Assembly: GCA_021163265.1 (NCBI GenBank) | Contig: JAGGXC010000023.1 | Location: 6,378-70,377 of the forward strand | Length of the DNA stretch: 64,000 nucleotides | Direction: 5' to 3' | DNA from: a bacterium | GTDB taxonomy: Bacteria; Patescibacteriota; Minisyncoccia; Minisyncoccales; JAGGXC01 | Part shown: one piece after another, positions 7,820 through 15,011 of the stretch | Layout of the letters: every line of letters starts with the position of its first letter | Position numbering within the stretch: the stretch's first letter is position 1 | The notes under the pieces: generated by a model | What the model saw: only the letters and a program-made list of their open reading frames with translations | Database searches by the model: none | Told to the model about the DNA's origin: nothing | Position numbers and translations under genes: made by a program

Positions 7820-8422
7820 CTAAAAAAGGAGATTAGAAGTAATAAACACCTCAATCAAAGCTGAAAAAAATAAAATAATTAATAGTCTGATAAATAAAGT
7901 AAGCCCTAAATTAAGTTCTTTTACAATACTAACTTCCTTATTAAATATCTTTCTTATTACTGTCCATCCAATTTTTAATCCTATCGCAGAAAAAATCAAA
8001 AAACAAGGAATCTCAAGAATTCCATGAGGAATAATACCTGTAAGGAAATAAGAAAAAGAGGCTTGCTTCAAAGAGAAATTAGCCAAAATACCTAAAATCT
8101 CACCGTTATTCAATAAAGCAATTAACGGAAAAATCCCAAATAGCAAACCTGACAAGATCACAAACAAAGAACTAAGGCCATTTTTTAAAAAAATAGAAAG
8201 CGTCTGAAGAATCTTGTTTTGATGTAAAAGAGGCTCATACGTCTGGCGAATTATCAAAATAAGTTCTTTTGCTTGATCAGGATAAAACTCAGCAAAATAG
8301 TATCCCAGAAAAATACCAACAATAAAAATAACTATTGCCCCCAGAATATAAGGAATAAGAGTTCTTAAATAAAGATACAAAAAATATCTTTTTAGGAAAA
8401 TGATGATTCTTCTTCTATCCAT
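7820..8422 (-). CDS. SpoIIM-like (DUF95) membrane protein
   Basis: IFLKN, NGEILG, IIPHGILEIP, SALIEVFIT motifs; start moved from 8479 to the ATG at 8422 (MDRRR) to shorten the secA overlap. Confidence 0.8.
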   Translation of the reverse strand: MDRRRIIIFLKRYFLYLYLRTLIPYILGAIVIFIVGIFLGYYFAEFYPDQAKELILIIRQTYEPLLHQNKILQTLSIFLKNGLSSLFVILSGLLFGIFPLIALLNNGEILGILANFSLKQASFSYFLTGIIPHGILEIPCFLIFSAIGLKIGWTVIRKIFNKEVSIVKELNLGLTLFIRLLIILFFSALIEVFITSNLLF

Positions 8423-10898
8423 ATTTTGGCCAGCAACATTTTTTGTATTTTTTTCCTGAACCGCAAGGACAAGGATCATTGCGACCAGGAGTTTGTCTTA
8501 CCTGACGATGATTTACAACTGTTCTTCGAAAATATTGAGGTGGCTGTGGAGACTCTTTTTTGTTTATTTCTATATTTAAAATGGAGTGAACAATAGCTTT
8601 CTCTATCGTATCCAAAAACTGCCTAAACAAACGGTGACCCTCTGTTTTATATTCTACCAAAGGATCCTGAGCTCCGTAAGCTCTTAAACGAACAGAATCC
8701 TTCAGATGATGTTCCATCATATATAAATGATCTATCCATAACATATCCATTGTACGCAAGGCAACAAACCTCATTATCTTTAACATATTTTCCTTTCCTA
8801 TCAGCTCTTCCTTTTTTTGATATTCATCTTTTGAATAGCCATGTCTTTCTATCATTTCAATTACTTTCTGTCGCAAATCGTCAGGAGTAGCTCTTAAAAT
8901 CTCTTTCCGTTTACGATAAAATGTTTCTCGATGTTTATTAAGCACGTCATCATATTCTAATAGATGCTTTCTTGCATCAAAATTCATTCCCTCAAGCTTT
9001 GACTGAGCCGCTTCAATTGCATTTGAGACCATCTTTGCTTCTATAGGTTGATCCTCGGGAATATTTAGTTTCTCCATTAATACTTTTAACTTTTCTCCTC
9101 CAAATATCTGCATAAGGTCATCCTCGAGAGAAACAAAAAACTGAGAAGAACCAGGATCTCCTTGTCTTCCTGCTCTACCTCTTAATTGATTATCGATTCG
9201 CCGCGCTTCATGTCTTTCTGTTCCTATAACATGAAGCCCTCCCAAAGCTCTCACTTTCTTTGCTTCTTCAGGATCTGGAGGATTTCCTCCTAAAATAATA
9301 TCCACTCCCCTTCCTGCCATATTAGTAGCTACAGTTACCTGTCCCAATCTCCCCGCTTGAGCAATAATCTCTCCTTCTCTTTCATGGTTTGTGGCATCTA
9401 AGACCTGGCAAGCAATCCCTTCTCTCTCCAATAGTCTTTTAATTATCCTGTTTTTTTCAATCGCCCCTTCTGTATGCTCTCTAGCAGCGAACACACCTGT
9501 TCCTATCAAAATTGGTTGACCTAGCGCATGACGTTTTTTTACCTCTTCTACTATAGCTTTCAATTTTCCTTTCTTTGTTCTATACACCCGATCAGGCAAA
9601 TCCTTTCTTATCATTGGTTTATTTGTAGGAACAGAAATCACTTCTAGATTGTAAACCTTATCAAACTCTTCAGCAGATGTAGCCGCTGTTCCTGTCATAC
9701 CCGCTAACTTTTCATACATCCGGAAATAATTCTGAAAAGTAATGGATGCAAGTGTCCGAGATTCAGGCTTTACTTCAAGACCCTCTTTTGCTTCCACTGC
9801 TTGATGAAGACCACCTGACCACCTTCTTCCAGGCATTAATCTCCCTGTAAATTCATCAACTATAATTACTTCCCCATTCTTTACAATATAATCCCTGTCT
9901 CTTTTAAACAAAACGCGAGCTTTAAGAGCAGCCTCTAATTGATGAATAGTAATAATATCACTCTTAGCCCAAGGATCAAAGCCAAGCTCCCTAATAATTC
10001 TTTCTTGCCCTTTTTCGGTAAAAGTAGGAATACGCATCTTCGCATCCATTACATAATCCTGATTTTCTTTAAACTGACTTATCAATCTAGCAAACCGATA
10101 ATACTTCTCTGTAGATTTCTCAGCAGGCGAAGAAATAATTAAAGGTGTTCTTGCTTCATCAATCAAAATAGAATCTATCTCATCAATTATCGCATAAAAA
10201 AAGCCTCTCTGGACCTCTTCCTCTGAACTATAAACCATGTTATCCCGAAGATAATCAAAACCAAACTCATTGTTTGTACCGTAGGTAATATCTGCTTGAT
10301 AAGCTTCTTTTCTGGTACAAGGACGGAGAAAATCTTCTACTACTTTAAAAGAACCTAGTTCGTCTCGGATTTTATCTTTCTCCTCATCTGGCTTTTTATA
10401 CTCCGGATCATAAATAAAAGACTGCTCATGATTAAGACAACCAACAGATAGCCCTAAATAATGATAAATCTGTCCCATCCATACAGTATCTCTTCTTGCT
10501 AAATAATCATTTACTGTAACAAGGTGAACACCCCTACCTGTGAGAGCATTCAAATATAAAGGTAATGTAGCAGCAAGGGTTTTACCTTCACCTGTTTTCA
10601 TTTCGGCAATCTTTCCCTGATGAAGAACTATACCTCCGATGAGTTGACAATCAAAATGTCTCTGACCTAAAGTCCTTTTCGCTGCTTCTCTTACTACAGC
10701 AAATGCTTCAGGTAGAACATTATCAAGAGATTGGCCTTTTTTAATCCTTTCTTTAAACTCAAGTGTCTTTTTTCTTAGTTCTTCTTGTGACAAACGCTCA
10801 AAGTTTTTCTCTAAACTGTTAATCTTCTCAACATAAGGATAAATACTTCTAAGATACTTTTCGTTGGCATCGCCAAATATTTTATTTAAAATTCCCAT
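8415..10898 (-). CDS. secA: Preprotein translocase ATPase SecA
   Basis: MKTGEGKT, DEIDSILIDEARTPLIIS, ATNMAGRG, QLRGRAGRQGDPG, C-terminal SEC-C GRNDPCPCGSGKKYKKC. Confidence 0.98.
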   Translation of the reverse strand: MGILNKIFGDANEKYLRSIYPYVEKINSLEKNFERLSQEELRKKTLEFKERIKKGQSLDNVLPEAFAVVREAAKRTLGQRHFDCQLIGGIVLHQGKIAEMKTGEGKTLAATLPLYLNALTGRGVHLVTVNDYLARRDTVWMGQIYHYLGLSVGCLNHEQSFIYDPEYKKPDEEKDKIRDELGSFKVVEDFLRPCTRKEAYQADITYGTNNEFGFDYLRDNMVYSSEEEVQRGFFYAIIDEIDSILIDEARTPLIISSPAEKSTEKYYRFARLISQFKENQDYVMDAKMRIPTFTEKGQERIIRELGFDPWAKSDIITIHQLEAALKARVLFKRDRDYIVKNGEVIIVDEFTGRLMPGRRWSGGLHQAVEAKEGLEVKPESRTLASITFQNYFRMYEKLAGMTGTAATSAEEFDKVYNLEVISVPTNKPMIRKDLPDRVYRTKKGKLKAIVEEVKKRHALGQPILIGTGVFAAREHTEGAIEKNRIIKRLLEREGIACQVLDATNHEREGEIIAQAGRLGQVTVATNMAGRGVDIILGGNPPDPEEAKKVRALGGLHVIGTERHEARRIDNQLRGRAGRQGDPGSSQFFVSLEDDLMQIFGGEKLKVLMEKLNIPEDQPIEAKMVSNAIEAAQSKLEGMNFDARKHLLEYDDVLNKHRETFYRKRKEILRATPDDLRQKVIEMIERHGYSKDEYQKKEELIGKENMLKIMRFVALRTMDMLWIDHLYMMEHHLKDSVRLRAYGAQDPLVEYKTEGHRLFRQFLDTIEKAIVHSILNIEINKKESPQPPQYFRRTVVNHRQVRQTPGRNDPCPCGSGKKYKKCCWPKYG

Positions 10899-11023: not shown

Positions 11024-11443
11024 TTATCTTTTTTTTCTTTCCTGACTAACTGATGATGAAGAAATTATTTCTTTAAACTTCCTACTCGACCTCCGTACTT
11101 TTGAGATCTGTTTTTCTTTATACTGTTTAAGTATCCTTTGAAGTTCATCTTTAACTTCGGTTATTGCCAAGAAAATATCATTTTTCACTGACTCAGCTCT
11201 TACACTCTTACCGGGCAATTTTATTTGACATTCTACTCGAAAGACATCTCCTTTTCGATGATGTAGTCTTTTTTCTAGCTCTACCCATCCTTCCACAGCT
11301 GGTTTTACTTTATGGGATTGTTTGAAATCCTCACCTATATCTTTTATAAGCTTCTCTAATCCTCCGATCTTTTCTTTTACAGCGCTTCTAAGAGAAGGAG
11401 AAATTTTAATATTTGTACCCTTAATTTCAAGTTTAAATCGCAT
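11024..11443 (-). CDS. hpf: Ribosome hibernation factor HPF/RaiA (short form)
   Basis: IKGTNIKISPSLRSAVKEKI...FRVECQIKLPGKSVRAE...DIFLAI...L..YKEK pattern. Confidence 0.85.
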   Translation of the reverse strand: MRFKLEIKGTNIKISPSLRSAVKEKIGGLEKLIKDIGEDFKQSHKVKPAVEGWVELEKRLHHRKGDVFRVECQIKLPGKSVRAESVKNDIFLAITEVKDELQRILKQYKEKQISKVRRSSRKFKEIISSSSVSQERKKR

Positions 11444-11548
11444 AATAATTCTGAGTTATAAAAGCTATTTTACAGAAACAATACCGCCCCCTTTGAGTCC
11501 CAAATTTGATAAAAATTCAGATTCTATTTAAGGGGGCGTCCCACAAAA

Positions 11549-11644
11549 CTATTTTTTCTTTCTTCTTTTGGTAGTCTTTTTCTTCTTTGTGGTTTTTTTC
11601 TTCTTTGTACTCTTCTTTTTTGTGGTTTTTTTCTTCTTGGCCAT
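11549..11644 (-). CDS. 31-aa Lys/Thr-rich basic peptide (histone-H1/protamine-like), below the ORF-track cutoff
   Basis: MAKKKKTTKKKSTKKKKTTKKKKTTKRRKKK*, with GGAGG Shine-Dalgarno 9 nt upstream and an inverted repeat (CGCCCCCTT/AAGGGGGCG) downstream. Confidence 0.75.
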   Translation of the reverse strand: MAKKKKTTKKKSTKKKKTTKKKKTTKRRKKK

Positions 11645-11789
11645 TTATATACCCCTCCAGGTATTTCAAAAACCTGGTATTTTTGTTTTTTGAATGCAAA
11701 TAGTCGACCAGCCTATTTGCAATATAAATTTATTATTTTATTTTCTCATTTCTAAAAAGAGTGTCAAGGTGGATAACTACAAAAGCGAT

Positions 11790-12680
11790 TCAAAAACCAA
11801 GATATTCAATTTCTTCTTTCAGTACAATATTGAATTTTTGTTTTACTTTTTCTTTTGCTAAATTAATTAAATATAAAACATCTTCACTGCTAGCATCTCC
11901 TAGGTTTACAATAAAATTACCATGCTTCTTTGAAATCTCTGCCCCTCCTTTTTTTGCTCCTTTCAGATTACACATTTCAATTAACTTTCCTGCCGAAAAA
12001 CCTTCTGGATTTTTAAAAATAGAGCCTGCTGACCGTAAACCTATTGGTTGTTTTTCTTTCCTATAATTCAAATTTCTCTCTATCCTTTTTTTTATCTCTT
12101 CCCTATTTCCTTTTTCCAGAGTAAGTCTCGCTTCTAAAATTACCAAATTTTTATTTTGTTTAAAAATACTATCTCTGTAATCAAAAAGGCATTGATCTCT
12201 TAAATACTTCCTAATTATTATTTCGGAATCTAGTTCTAGAACTTTTATTTCTTGAATGACTGTTGAAATTGATCTACCAAAAGCACCGCTGTTTCCTCTT
12301 ATTGCTCCTCCCACAGTCCCAGGAATTCCTGCCGCCCATTCCAAGCCAGTAAGCTCAGCTCTTTCTGATAGGCGAACTAATTGGCTTAGTAATACACCTG
12401 CCCCAGCTAATATTTCAAGCTTATTCTGCTCAATTCTTCTATTCTCTGTTTTTATCACTAATCCATCAAAGCCTTTATCAGAAATTAAAAGATTGCTCCC
12501 TCCTCCTAAAATAAAAAAATCAAGTTTATATTCTTTCGCTACCTGAACAGCTTTAATTATTGATTCTGTATCTTTTGCAACAAAAAAATATTTTGCTTGT
12601 CCTCCGATTCCTAAAGTAGTATAAGAAGAAAGTAAAATATTTTTTTTAATGCCATTCAACCTGTTTTCTATTGAAGACAT
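11790..12680 (-). CDS. murB: UDP-N-acetylmuramate dehydrogenase
   Basis: TTLGIGGQA, ILGGGSNLL, GIPGTVGGA, SAGSIFKNP, HGNFIVN. Confidence 0.95.
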   Translation of the reverse strand: MSSIENRLNGIKKNILLSSYTTLGIGGQAKYFFVAKDTESIIKAVQVAKEYKLDFFILGGGSNLLISDKGFDGLVIKTENRRIEQNKLEILAGAGVLLSQLVRLSERAELTGLEWAAGIPGTVGGAIRGNSGAFGRSISTVIQEIKVLELDSEIIIRKYLRDQCLFDYRDSIFKQNKNLVILEARLTLEKGNREEIKKRIERNLNYRKEKQPIGLRSAGSIFKNPEGFSAGKLIEMCNLKGAKKGGAEISKKHGNFIVNLGDASSEDVLYLINLAKEKVKQKFNIVLKEEIEYLGF

Positions 12681-12701
12681 CTTTTAGATATAGATATTTA
12701 T

Positions 12702-12765
12702 AAAAAAGGACCGGAGGAGTTGACTCCAATTCTAAGTCTTTTGGTGAGTGCTAGCCTCCGGTCCG
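12702..12765 (-). ncRNA. Candidate small RNA 2 (~64 nt)
   Basis: Promoter TTGCTT(12795-12800)-17-TATAAT(12772-12777); 10-bp closing stem GGACCGGAGG/CCUCCGGUCC followed by U6; no ORF. Confidence 0.6.
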
Positions 12766-12801
12766 ATTATCATTATACATTTATTTTTCTCTTGAAGCAA
12801 G

Positions 12802-12884
12802 AAAAAAGTGTCGGACCTCACTGATGTAAGGTCCGACACCGACTTTAGAATGGAGTCTCCGATATACTCGGAGTCGCACTCACC
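12802..12884 (-). ncRNA. Candidate small RNA 1 (~83 nt)
   Basis: Promoter TTGACA(12914-12919)-17-TAATAT(12891-12896); internal hairpin CUCCGA/UCGGAG; 14-bp terminator stem (12808-12839) followed by U6; no ORF. Confidence 0.65.
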
Positions 12885-12926
12885 GTTTTAATATTAACAA
12901 TATAATCAAAGCTTGTCAAGAGCTTA

Positions 12927-15011
12927 TCATTGACTAAGTTCTTCTTTAGAAACTCCGAGACCTCTTTGATTTAAAAGATTTTGAATGTCGTTGGCCCACT
13001 TAGGATTAATATCTAGAGCTGTTTTAATTGCCCGTTTCATATACTCCTGGTTACCTGTTGCTTTCGCTATCACTATTCCGACATCCACCATTATCATATT
13101 TGACTGCTCAGCACGAGGAGCAAGCAACACTGATTTTCGAGCAACAAGAAAAGCTTCATCAAACTTTCCTTCAAACATTTTGGTTTGAGCAAGAGCCCAA
13201 TAAGCCTGCTGATTTCCGGGACTAATCTCAATAGCTTTATTCAAAACCTCTTCTGCTTTTTTTAAAGCAGAATAATCTATCCTCGAGTAGATATTATATA
13301 CACTTCCTAGCAAGAGATAAGAAGAAAAAAGCAAAGGAGATTCTTTTATATTTTCTTCTAATCCTTGAGCAAGAAAGGTAAGTTCTCTCTTTTGATCTTC
13401 CAGAGGAATTGCTTCCACGATAGGACGAATTTTATATTTAGCCATCTCTTGACTAGCAATGTTTTCTCTCATCTGAAATTTCCCCATAGGAGAAATCGAC
13501 AAGCTCTCTTTATACAAATCAATTCTTTCTTTTGAGTCTTCGGTATGAACAGCTTTTATAAGAGTCATATTGGAACGTGCCGGTTGAATTACAAAATAAA
13601 ACAGAGAGAAACCTAAAGCTAACGAAAAGACCACAAAACCAACCATAAAACCAATTCGATTAAATGAAAGATCTCCCTCTTCGATCTTAATATTTTCTTT
13701 TTGAGAAGCTATACTTCCCACAAACCCCAAGACGACAAAAAACATCATATAACTTGCTACCATATCGAATACAGTTAAATTTTGAATAAAGTAAGCAAGT
13801 AGAGTAACTGAAAAGAGAGAAACGGTTAAGAAATCTAATTCTTGACGATAATATTTTTTCCAAAGTATCCAAAATACAGAAAGAAAAAATAAAAGATAAA
13901 CCAAAAATCCAACCATTCCCATTGCAACTAATGTATCTACTATAATATTATGAGCCCGGTCAAACCAGATGTCATTTCCATATTCCTCTCTGATAAAAAG
14001 GCGGGGGTCAAAATATTTCGTAAAAGCGATATTGAAATTCTCAGGCCCCCATCCAAAAAGAGGCCTTTCTTTCAAAGCTCTTATACCTATATTCCAGACA
14101 AGAGCACGATCTTTTGAAATTGATAAAGAAACTTTATCAAGTATTTCACGCTGAATTATATTTTTCTGTCCAAAATAAGCATATGAAAGAGAGGAATAAA
14201 TTGCCAAAACCAGAGCACATGAGAAGATTATCAAGAGAGAAATACCAGCTATCTTCAGTTTTTTATCTCGATGATAAATACACCAAAGCAAAAACAACAA
14301 AACAAGCCCGCCAACAAATGAAATAGCTGCTGCTCTGCCTGTGCTAAGAAAAAGAGAAATTATAACAATAGCAGAAAAAATCCCAAACAATATCCTCAAT
14401 TCTTGCTCAAAAAGCTCAAAGAAAAGGTAAATTCCAAGAAAAGCATTAAATAATAAATAAGAAGCTAGGAATGAACTATTCCCTAACGTCCCTCCTCCCC
14501 GAGTCTCCAAACCTGCTTTAGCAAGAGGTCCAATATGTTTGGCGGTTAAGATAGCCAGAGAACCTACAATTGCTGCAATTATTATTGATACCTCAAAGAC
14601 TTTTATCCAATCTTCTTTTTTAAAAACCGAAGATGTAGCTACAAATAACCCAAAAAGATGAAACCACATTAACAATCCTGTCATTCTTTCATATTTTGAC
14701 CAAAAACTCTCAGCCGGACAAACCCCAAACACTGTGGAGATTATCATAGACACAAGAAAAAGAGAAAGTCCAACTAAAAGGATGTTTAATTTAGGTCTAT
14801 ATTTAGAAAAAGAAACTGCCAAAATCAAATAGACAAAAATTATCACTTCTGCTACTCCAAAAAAATAAAGAGTTTTTGGAGCAACAAAAGGAAAAAAGAA
14901 ATTCCTGCTTATTATAAGAGGAGTAAGCAAAAGCGAATAAACAGAAAACTTAAAGATCACAAGAAGAAGATGTTCTATTTTCTTGCTTAAACTAAAAATA
15001 TGGTTTGACAT
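12927..15011 (-). CDS. O-antigen ligase family / O-oligosaccharyltransferase-like membrane protein with C-terminal TPRs
   Basis: Many TM segments; GTLGNSSFLASYL, R..VWNIG...RPLFGWGPENF, DRAHNIIVDTL (Wzy_C signature); TPR-like tail. Confidence 0.85.
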   Translation of the reverse strand: MSNHIFSLSKKIEHLLLVIFKFSVYSLLLTPLIISRNFFFPFVAPKTLYFFGVAEVIIFVYLILAVSFSKYRPKLNILLVGLSLFLVSMIISTVFGVCPAESFWSKYERMTGLLMWFHLFGLFVATSSVFKKEDWIKVFEVSIIIAAIVGSLAILTAKHIGPLAKAGLETRGGGTLGNSSFLASYLLFNAFLGIYLFFELFEQELRILFGIFSAIVIISLFLSTGRAAAISFVGGLVLLFLLWCIYHRDKKLKIAGISLLIIFSCALVLAIYSSLSYAYFGQKNIIQREILDKVSLSISKDRALVWNIGIRALKERPLFGWGPENFNIAFTKYFDPRLFIREEYGNDIWFDRAHNIIVDTLVAMGMVGFLVYLLFFLSVFWILWKKYYRQELDFLTVSLFSVTLLAYFIQNLTVFDMVASYMMFFVVLGFVGSIASQKENIKIEEGDLSFNRIGFMVGFVVFSLALGFSLFYFVIQPARSNMTLIKAVHTEDSKERIDLYKESLSISPMGKFQMRENIASQEMAKYKIRPIVEAIPLEDQKRELTFLAQGLEENIKESPLLFSSYLLLGSVYNIYSRIDYSALKKAEEVLNKAIEISPGNQQAYWALAQTKMFEGKFDEAFLVARKSVLLAPRAEQSNMIMVDVGIVIAKATGNQEYMKRAIKTALDINPKWANDIQNLLNQRGLGVSKEELSQ

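Follow-up and report, generated by a model that had tools for sequence, protein, structure and literature searches.

A covarying, strand-exchanging pair of separately encoded small RNAs in Patescibacteria and the tentative likeness of one partner to 6S RNA

Two separately encoded small RNAs of Patescibacteria, each of which would fold alone, exchange strands to form a heterodimer, as judged by comparison of their homologs. We propose that they constitute an undescribed, class-wide two-gene system with a conserved strand-exchange switch, which appears to belong to none of the families tested. In the window (i.e., the whole 64,000-nucleotide stretch of DNA analyzed), both predicted units lie on the minus strand in a 247-nt gap extending from an O-antigen-ligase gene to murB, with the following features:

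12927..15011, minus strand: O-antigen ligase family gene, the upstream neighbor, not conserved
12891..12919, minus strand: RNA1 promoter called by a promoter scan, with TTGACA (12919-12914), a 17-bp spacer and an extended -10, TG-n-TAATAT (12896-12891)
12802..12884, minus strand: predicted RNA1, ~83 nt, comprising in order block A, a variable hairpin, block B, the 3′ hairpin and a U-tract
12876..12884, minus strand: RNA1 block A, at the predicted 5′ end; partner, RNA2 12743-12751
12857..12874, minus strand: RNA1 internal hairpin, variable in length and missing in some homologs; one arm of the putative four-way junction
12841..12857, minus strand: RNA1 block B; partner, RNA2 12722-12738
12802..12839, minus strand: RNA1 3′ hairpin and intrinsic terminator, 15 bp followed by U6
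12772..12800, minus strand: RNA2 promoter, with -10 TATAAT (12777-12772) and a weak, unconserved -35
12702..12766, minus strand: predicted RNA2, ~64 nt, comprising closing stem P1, an internal loop, helix P2 and an 18-nt loop; U6 at 12707-12702
12764-12755 with 12717-12708, minus strand: RNA2 P1, a 10-bp closing stem proposed to equal the apical (upstream, -35 side) arm of 6S RNA
12743..12751, minus strand: RNA2 block A′ with a CACYCAC core, matching the 6S apical-stem/3′-bubble junction, with an invariant A after the stem
12723..12749, minus strand: RNA2 P2 and its loop, ACUC (12749-12746) pairing with GAGU (12726-12723); cannot coexist with full RNA1 pairing
11790..12680, minus strand: murB, the usual downstream neighbor
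11024..11443, minus strand: hpf/raiA, the ribosome hibernation factor (PF02482), followed by secA (8415-10898)

Both units fold more stably than all 200 of their shuffles (z of -6.6 for RNA1 and -3.8 for RNA2). The initial annotation had assigned each a sigma70 promoter and a hairpin-U6 end; the RNA1 promoter, both hairpin-U6 ends and the RNA2 -10 stand, while the RNA2 -35 falls, being TTGCTT in the window (3/6 matches, below the promoter-scan call) and TTGAC in none of the 64 order homologs in a logo that conserves the -10. Among RNA1 homologs, TTGAC at 17 bp is present in 89/115 and the TG in 101/115, counts which are partly circular because the RNA1 profile included the promoter. TAnnnT occurs close to RNA2 in 66/97 and 26/46 cases, as compared to 46% in shuffles. 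Several families outside the order show, by eye, RNA2 stems of 25–40 bp, and the U-tracts after P1 are often weak in the homolog survey, whose stem-length and promoter counts are noisy because the folds extended into AT-rich flanks. The shortest RNA2 form, with a single-base linker between the blocks, is found in family f21 (L033, L086, L089, L094). There is no ATG-started ORF in the window's RNA2 and none is evident in the homolog alignment; a type I toxin–antitoxin system was rejected for want of a small toxic ORF in both.

In the window, block A (12884-12876) pairs with 12751-12743 at 9/9 positions, and block B (12857-12841) forms 16 bp, with two bulges, with 12738-12722, the blocks coming in the same order in both RNAs. 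All this had been read from the single sequence by the initial annotation, and the cross-complementarity is kept, with covariation in both blocks, across 122 homologous pairs (124 parsed, two skipped; kin were counted though they are not independent). For the two blocks together, cognate partners reach -28.8 kcal/mol, as compared to -20.8 for non-cognate and -11.1 for shuffled partners, an energy attained in 0 of 5000 permutations. The median pair outdoes 98% of foreign partners, the own partner being the very best in only 39/122 because many blocks are common to several loci. Block B alone separates cognate from non-cognate partners by -14.1 vs. -9.2 kcal/mol. Mutual information computed on MAFFT alignments was blurred by register shifts for the RNA1 blocks, and block A was recounted with anchoring on RNA1 alone (109/122 pairs): its seven core pairs are 97–100% canonical, with substitutions of A-U to G-C at one position (11 cases) and exchanges between A-U, U-A and G-C at the 5′ end.

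Within RNA2, the conserved helix P2 (ACYC:GRGU) is canonical in 122/122 and is the top-ranked base-pair-compatible covarying column pair. Its middle pair is U-A in 96, C-G in 19 and U-G in seven of the 122. Where that pair is C-G (19 cases), RNA1 carries a G in block A in 13 (three are unparsed and three register-shifted) and a C in block B in 12 (U in four, unpaired in three); as far as aligned sequences can tell, four positions in two genes change together. On a quick and poorly resolved MurB tree covering 92/122 loci, the 11 C rows require nine changes. Predicted folds of the free RNAs have the P2 pair in 91/122 RNA2s and block A folded back in 96/122 RNA1s, with the ACUC of block B pairing back to block A in the window's RNA1. 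Since the bases invaded by RNA1 also form P2, the pairing would proceed by strand exchange and yield a mobile four-way junction, modeled with helix A, the RNA1 hairpin, helix B and the RNA2 stem as symmetric, exchangeable arms. It was left open by the initial annotation whether the two are a structural RNA or a switch: a static two-piece structure is the poorer fit, since the same bases have retained a partner within their own RNA as well as one in the other. Its GACU/AGUC kissing hairpins, in contrast, are absent from the predicted RNA2 fold, where ACYC:GRGU is the conserved helix.

A kissing interaction with a closed loop stops extending at about 6 bp, according to the accessible text of PMC10798244; hence, the free 5′ end of RNA1 would have to thread or P1 breathe. 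In eight loci (L152, L230, L232 (family f86), L098, L103, L106, L107, L082), block A has slid into the RNA2 loop, with up to 12–13 bp, and leaves part of P2 intact, making them natural variants of the junction position. A base triple in place of exclusive pairing was discarded, as the seven U-G cases and the strand polarity fit a Watson–Crick P2, and so was GGAG as a binder of the anti-Shine–Dalgarno sequence, which offers only 4 bp and whose conservation is accounted for by P2.

The pairing of CopA with CopT of plasmid R1 reportedly also leads to a four-way junction (Kolb et al. 2000), two folded RNAs likewise trading intramolecular stems for two intermolecular helices. However, CopA and CopT are two strands of one locus and their complementarity is therefore automatic, whereas here it is kept by coordinated substitutions in two genes, which are moreover chromosomal and have no target ORF. 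A cis-antisense arrangement of that type was thus rejected, the RNA1 and RNA2 genes not being opposite strands of the same DNA. Natural examples of RNA strand-displacement logic are rare, and covariation of two genes at a mobile junction would be one.

The gene arrangement across homologs bears out the earlier suggestion of two separately encoded, trans-pairing RNAs, through inversion and separation of the genes as well as covariation of both blocks. From 150 RNA2 loci, six were dropped (one chance match, four duplicates and one likely misbinned contig), and an RNA1 profile match lies near RNA2 in 126 of the remaining 144. The RNA1 start was parsed in 116 (two of them wrongly), giving 101 tandem, 12 convergent and three divergent pairs; the genes are separate and non-overlapping in all 116, and 16/101 tandem pairs are spaced by more than 400 nt. 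A pattern search of 20 genomes with no complete adjacent RNA1 recovered a new genuine one in seven, five on another contig, some of the seven sitting at contig ends; in one genome (G108) the genes are clearly unlinked. For these new RNA1s, the genome's own RNA2 ranked 4–35 of 142 as partner. One genome (G129) has two RNA2 copies (L092 and L096), with the RNA1 adjoining one of them having neither promoter nor block A; this second copy is either a duplication or an assembly artefact.

At blastn E<1e-4 the stretch is matched in 25 of 60 relatives, one match covering the promoter only. An RNA2 model scores 111/151 genomes of the order as positive, 105 with a single match, and a second model 73/151 genomes of the class (Patescibacteria, Parcubacteria type), a count in which not all of the weakest matches were individually inspected. 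As three genomes scored as negative (G192, G062 and G166) do carry the pair, both counts are lower bounds. Outside the class, 11/143 genomes of a phylum sample yielded marginal RNA2 matches, none with the anatomy, and in other classes no pair was seen in 36 regions preceding hpf (one survey step covered 34/40 loci). A pattern scan of species genomes returned 71 loci, mostly labeled Patescibacteria, Parcubacteria, Nealsonbacteria, Paceibacterota, Minisyncoccales or ‘uncultured Saccharibacteria’. Three have other phylum labels: two yielded no match to the model, and the third, a contig of 1.8 kb, holds the full pair along with murB. The one pattern match in viral contigs has no RNA2 stem. Thus, among the genomes searched, the element looks confined to the class. 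Being class-wide, single-copy and kept in genomes of 0.4–1 Mb in which SRP was not found (5/5 tested), the pair is likely part of the core biology of Patescibacteria, tiny symbiotic bacteria whose regulation is almost unknown.

For the function of the pair, we tentatively favor, while rating it somewhat below an even chance, a 6S-like system with an encoded antidote, with an obligate, possibly dimeric structural RNA as the next and more doubtful reading. We propose RNA1 as the antidote or antisense partner of RNA2. On the favored reading, which as a whole stays short of probable, RNA2 may be a permuted mini-6S decoy of the sigma70 RNA polymerase and RNA1 a gene-encoded antidote in place of pRNA release. 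Free RNA2 would be a circularly permuted mini-6S with its ends at the position of the 6S apical loop, P1 and P2 serving as the upstream promoter arm and the 18-nt loop as the bubble's non-template (3′) strand fused to its template (5′) strand; with such an arm and fused bubble, it could bind the sigma70 polymerase. Because RNA2 lacks the downstream closing stem that pRNA synthesis would unwind, release would be delegated to RNA1, which, as the reverse complement of a linear 6S core, would cover both bubble strands and open P2. As the RNA1 promoter is near the sigma70 consensus, freed polymerase would, if RNA1 is transcribed from it, make more antidote. The outcome might be a positive-feedback switch out of dormancy, acting beside the ordinary 6S RNA and encoded adjoining the ribosome hibernation factor gene hpf.

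The likeness to 6S was noticed after the fact and rests on ~12 nt. In the Rfam 6S consensus and in Patescibacteria 6S RNAs, the apical stem has GRG at its 5′ foot, paired with a CYC after which the 3′ bubble opens with AC. This conserved GRG:CYC-AC core of the apical-stem/bubble junction, a short motif of modest significance, is present in RNA2, where the order of its two blocks is swapped; on the RNA1 reverse strand the same blocks flank a short hairpin and keep the 6S order. In a 6S set, a profile trained on RNA2 falls on this junction (relative position 0.51–0.65, 5th–95th percentile), with p<0.05 in 25/41 and a median of 7.6 bits, as against at most 2.0 bits in 45 tRNA/tmRNA controls; 1.6% of 8968 genome windows reach the 6S median. 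Profiles trained on 38 6S RNAs, leaving out the genome's own, were used to rank 1.35 million positions: RNA2 in permuted order ranks 29 with 15.4 bits, outscored by 28 chance sites, while in linear order the genome's true 6S ranks 32 with 16.4 bits and the RNA1 reverse strand 56. With these profiles, 80/124 RNA2s beat their shuffles at p<0.05. For one 70-nt RNA we roughly estimate the likeness at p ~0.002, or ~0.01 after the comparison of about six families.

RNA2 shares with 6S (RF00013) a CYC:GRG helix edging a single-stranded region, the invariant A-C that follows and an arm of ~20–24 nt (~20 nt in RNA2 vs. 23.5 nt in 6S). It differs from 6S in having no closing stem, an 18-nt loop (9–21 nt across homologs, with 18 as the mode) rather than a larger two-stranded bubble, a U-A where 6S has an A.A mismatch, a G where 6S has A/U before GRG, and no GYC:GRC helix. 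The linear 6S layout, with the bubble between apical and closing stems, is not found in RNA2, which has one arm and swapped blocks. RF00013 has no match in window positions 12300-13300 at E<=10, and a Patescibacteria 6S model (R3) matches contig C3 rather than the locus of the pair. The earlier statement that no known family fits thus survives for Rfam, while its dismissal of 6S missed the permuted core blocks of RNA2. There is precedent for compact forms in Bacillus subtilis 6S-1, where, according to the accessible parts of PMC8876501, truncated or circularly permuted versions of 78–82 nt, the truncated ones retaining a helix on both sides, still bind the sigmaA polymerase, with about tenfold lower affinity, and annealing a 6-nt oligo to the bubble prevents binding; the same text has the -10-like 3′-bubble bases of E. 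coli 6S mattering little for binding. As in pRNA release from 6S, a short complementary RNA pairing in the bubble is proposed to inactivate the decoy, but the proposed antidote has its own gene and is not templated on the decoy. A literal two-piece 6S with RNA1 supplying an arm was rejected, as the strand connectivity misfits.

Two separate small-RNA genes with co-evolved pairing, one coding for a 6S-like decoy and the other for its antidote, would be an arrangement with no described counterpart. If the 6S reading is true, it would offer a natural permuted 6S with polymerase release dispensing with pRNA synthesis, and the minimal needs of RNA promoter mimicry could be tested with two transcripts of 60–85 nt; if RNA2 binds polymerase, the system would belong with the 6S kind, with a new release mode. 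A more elaborate scenario, which we advance with less assurance and only as a whole, is that the class evolved a second, circularly permuted 6S-like decoy incapable of self-release together with a ‘minus-strand 6S’ antidote, which would use Holliday-like branch migration to free RNA polymerase of the decoy and would, in one order, dimerize via a kissing loop, resulting in a protein-free bistable switch for dormancy exit in host-dependent cells. The co-existence of canonical 6S with RNA2 in class genomes speaks against the decoy and antidote, as a second decoy would be unneeded, and so does the RNA1 3′ loop palindrome, which they leave unexplained.

In the order, 60/87 RNA1 3′ hairpins have a C-N4-G apex with a non-Watson–Crick flank, and 58 of these 60 loops are self-complementary hexamers of six kinds (45, 9, 1, 1, 1 and 1), the second commonest being scattered over the MurB tree; control hairpins have such a hexamer in 3/46. 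As adjacent loop bases cannot pair within one strand, this suggests that RNA1 may form kissing homodimers. The palindrome is absent from the window's copy and all 37 class-level RNA1s outside the order, and is therefore an optional feature. Per the available text of PMC10798244, the HIV-1 DIS kissing loop likewise presents a self-complementary hexamer with unpaired flanks in a hairpin loop; unlike it, the RNA1 hexamer is part of a terminator hairpin in bacteria and is confined to this order, and its dimer is putative. These palindromes are among the arguments for the next reading, a possible but rather unlikely one, that the RNA1:RNA2 heterodimer is obligate and itself does the work, as a four-way junction whose helices lie side by side, perhaps an (RNA1:RNA2)2 assembled via the kissing loop, with a ribosome-hibernation or protein-scaffold role.

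Such a particle could be like, or a split relic of, the raiA motif RNA, found at the same address before raiA-secA in other phyla. The two have in common a single-copy RNA gene that precedes raiA (hpf) and secA, in either orientation, a closing stem and the presence of KhpA/B. Where murB is missing, the pair lies directly upstream of hpf in nine loci and of secA in four (84/119 flanking ORFs scanned), and in the accessible text of PMC10861870 raiA motif genes are upstream of raiA in 66%. KhpA/B, which bind raiA RNA according to the available part of PMC12968392, are encoded in 5/5 genomes tested. The pair is also single-copy and class-wide, with both genes nearly always present. However, the raiA motif RNA is one chain with a P3/P4/PK1/PK2 core, reported from Bacillota and Actinomycetota; its core (P3, PK1, PK2, bulged P1), taken from the partial PMC12968392 description alone, could not be mapped on the pair by eye, and RF03072 has no match at E<=10 in 5/5 genomes or the window, though the model would miss such an RNA if it were split or permuted. 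Viral contigs scanned for the raiA motif likewise gave no match. Further, P2 is preserved throughout although the full heterodimer must open it, its 25 bp demand the 5′-end threading or P1 opening noted above for a kissing interaction stalling near 6 bp, and the palindromes are restricted to the order.

It is improbable that RNA2 is a leader or attenuator of murB-hpf-secA, with RNA1 as a trans-acting antisense RNA setting read-through. In the order, murB lies downstream on the same strand in 80/100 loci, often within 3–60 nt and thus with no room for another promoter, and the weak U-tracts after P1 would suit read-through. Yet, RNA2 faces away from murB, with all motifs intact, in 13/100 order loci, where murB is divergent, and in 2/50 class loci; RNA1 pairs only inside the loop, leaving P1 untouched; and in the class the gene downstream varies, murB not being within 1.5 kb in 32/50 loci.

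Comparably unlikely is the converse of the preferred decoy-and-antidote reading, in which RNA1 is the effector, an antisense RNA to canonical 6S or mRNAs, and RNA2 a decoy sponging it. Canonical 6S is present in this genome (G000:C3:20589-20734, minus strand; L346:1501-1646; 43 bits, canonical fold, z -6.8), this copy having a degenerate core, GGA:UCC. A Patescibacteria-trained model finds it in 59/151 class genomes vs. seven by RF00013, independently of RNA2 (29/73 RNA2 positives and 30/78 negatives, by hand count). The notion that the pair replaces a lost 6S, which came from RF00013 having 0/5 genomes, was dropped with these matches. The CACCCAC block of 6S is the complement of block A, which, by clean register or energy, pairs with 6S as well as or better than with RNA2 in 3/12 genomes (L131, L105, L241; a fourth case, L240, has a mis-set 5′ end), and the RNA1 promoter is stronger than that of RNA2. 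Against this, most RNA1s leave an A.C mismatch with 6S, block B prefers RNA2 in 11/12, RNA1 covaries with RNA2 and not with 6S in the 12 genomes, varying with the former while the latter is constant, and the invariant bases sit in RNA2. An untranscribed inverted-repeat element acting as DNA, finally, is highly improbable, since the complementarity survives inversion, kilobase separation and unlinking and tolerates G.U pairs, and promoters and terminators accompany each unit.

Comparison with other families leaves the pair on its own. The Rfam scan of the window gave no family match at the locus, only sub-threshold, snoRNA-type noise; ARAGORN found no tRNA or tmRNA there, and neither did tmRNA, RNase P RNA and tRNA models, with intact tmRNA and RNase P RNA elsewhere in the genome. 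In the two-piece (permuted) tmRNA, a housekeeping-type RNA of two paired chains that arose by gene permutation, both parts come from one precursor; unlike it, the RNA pair has no tRNA-like domain or tag. Neither SRP RNA (RF00169) nor SRP54 was found in five genomes (0/5 each), and Ffh/FtsY are missing from G000, G011, G036, G179 and G235, while secA and secD-type genes are present in the window. Ro60/Rsr (TROVE), partner of bacterial Y RNAs, has a gene in 0/5 genomes. A likeness to a CIRCE/HrcA half-site was dropped, being lost in many homologs. A literature search, with subscription journals mostly outside its reach, returned no paper dealing with the element, with Patescibacteria 6S or with a permuted 6S occurring in nature; the accessible parts of bioRxiv 10.64898/2026.09.22.753630 and 10.64898/2026.10.21.760802 contain none of the terms murB, raiA or the taxon names, and the part of the PMC10861870 supplement available has no Patescibacteria term.

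Some further observations concern the neighborhood. In the window, a Lys/Glu-rich ORF of 60 aa with no Pfam match (11517-11699, minus strand) lies between murB and hpf. False miRNA matches came from long, related inverted repeats (L265:1378-1479 and 2426-2486) that precede hpf in a genome of another class. Genes for a pyruvoyl-dependent arginine decarboxylase or SAM decarboxylase recur beside hpf and the pair (L155, L154, L234, L239, L102). Outside the order, RNA2 is followed in many families (loci L129-L132, L135, L137-L139, L148, L230, L232) by a long ORF of >400 aa with no Pfam match, and DUF5667 is found downstream of RNA2 in L148 and L144; these long ORFs are possibly one conserved family and a candidate partner of the pair.
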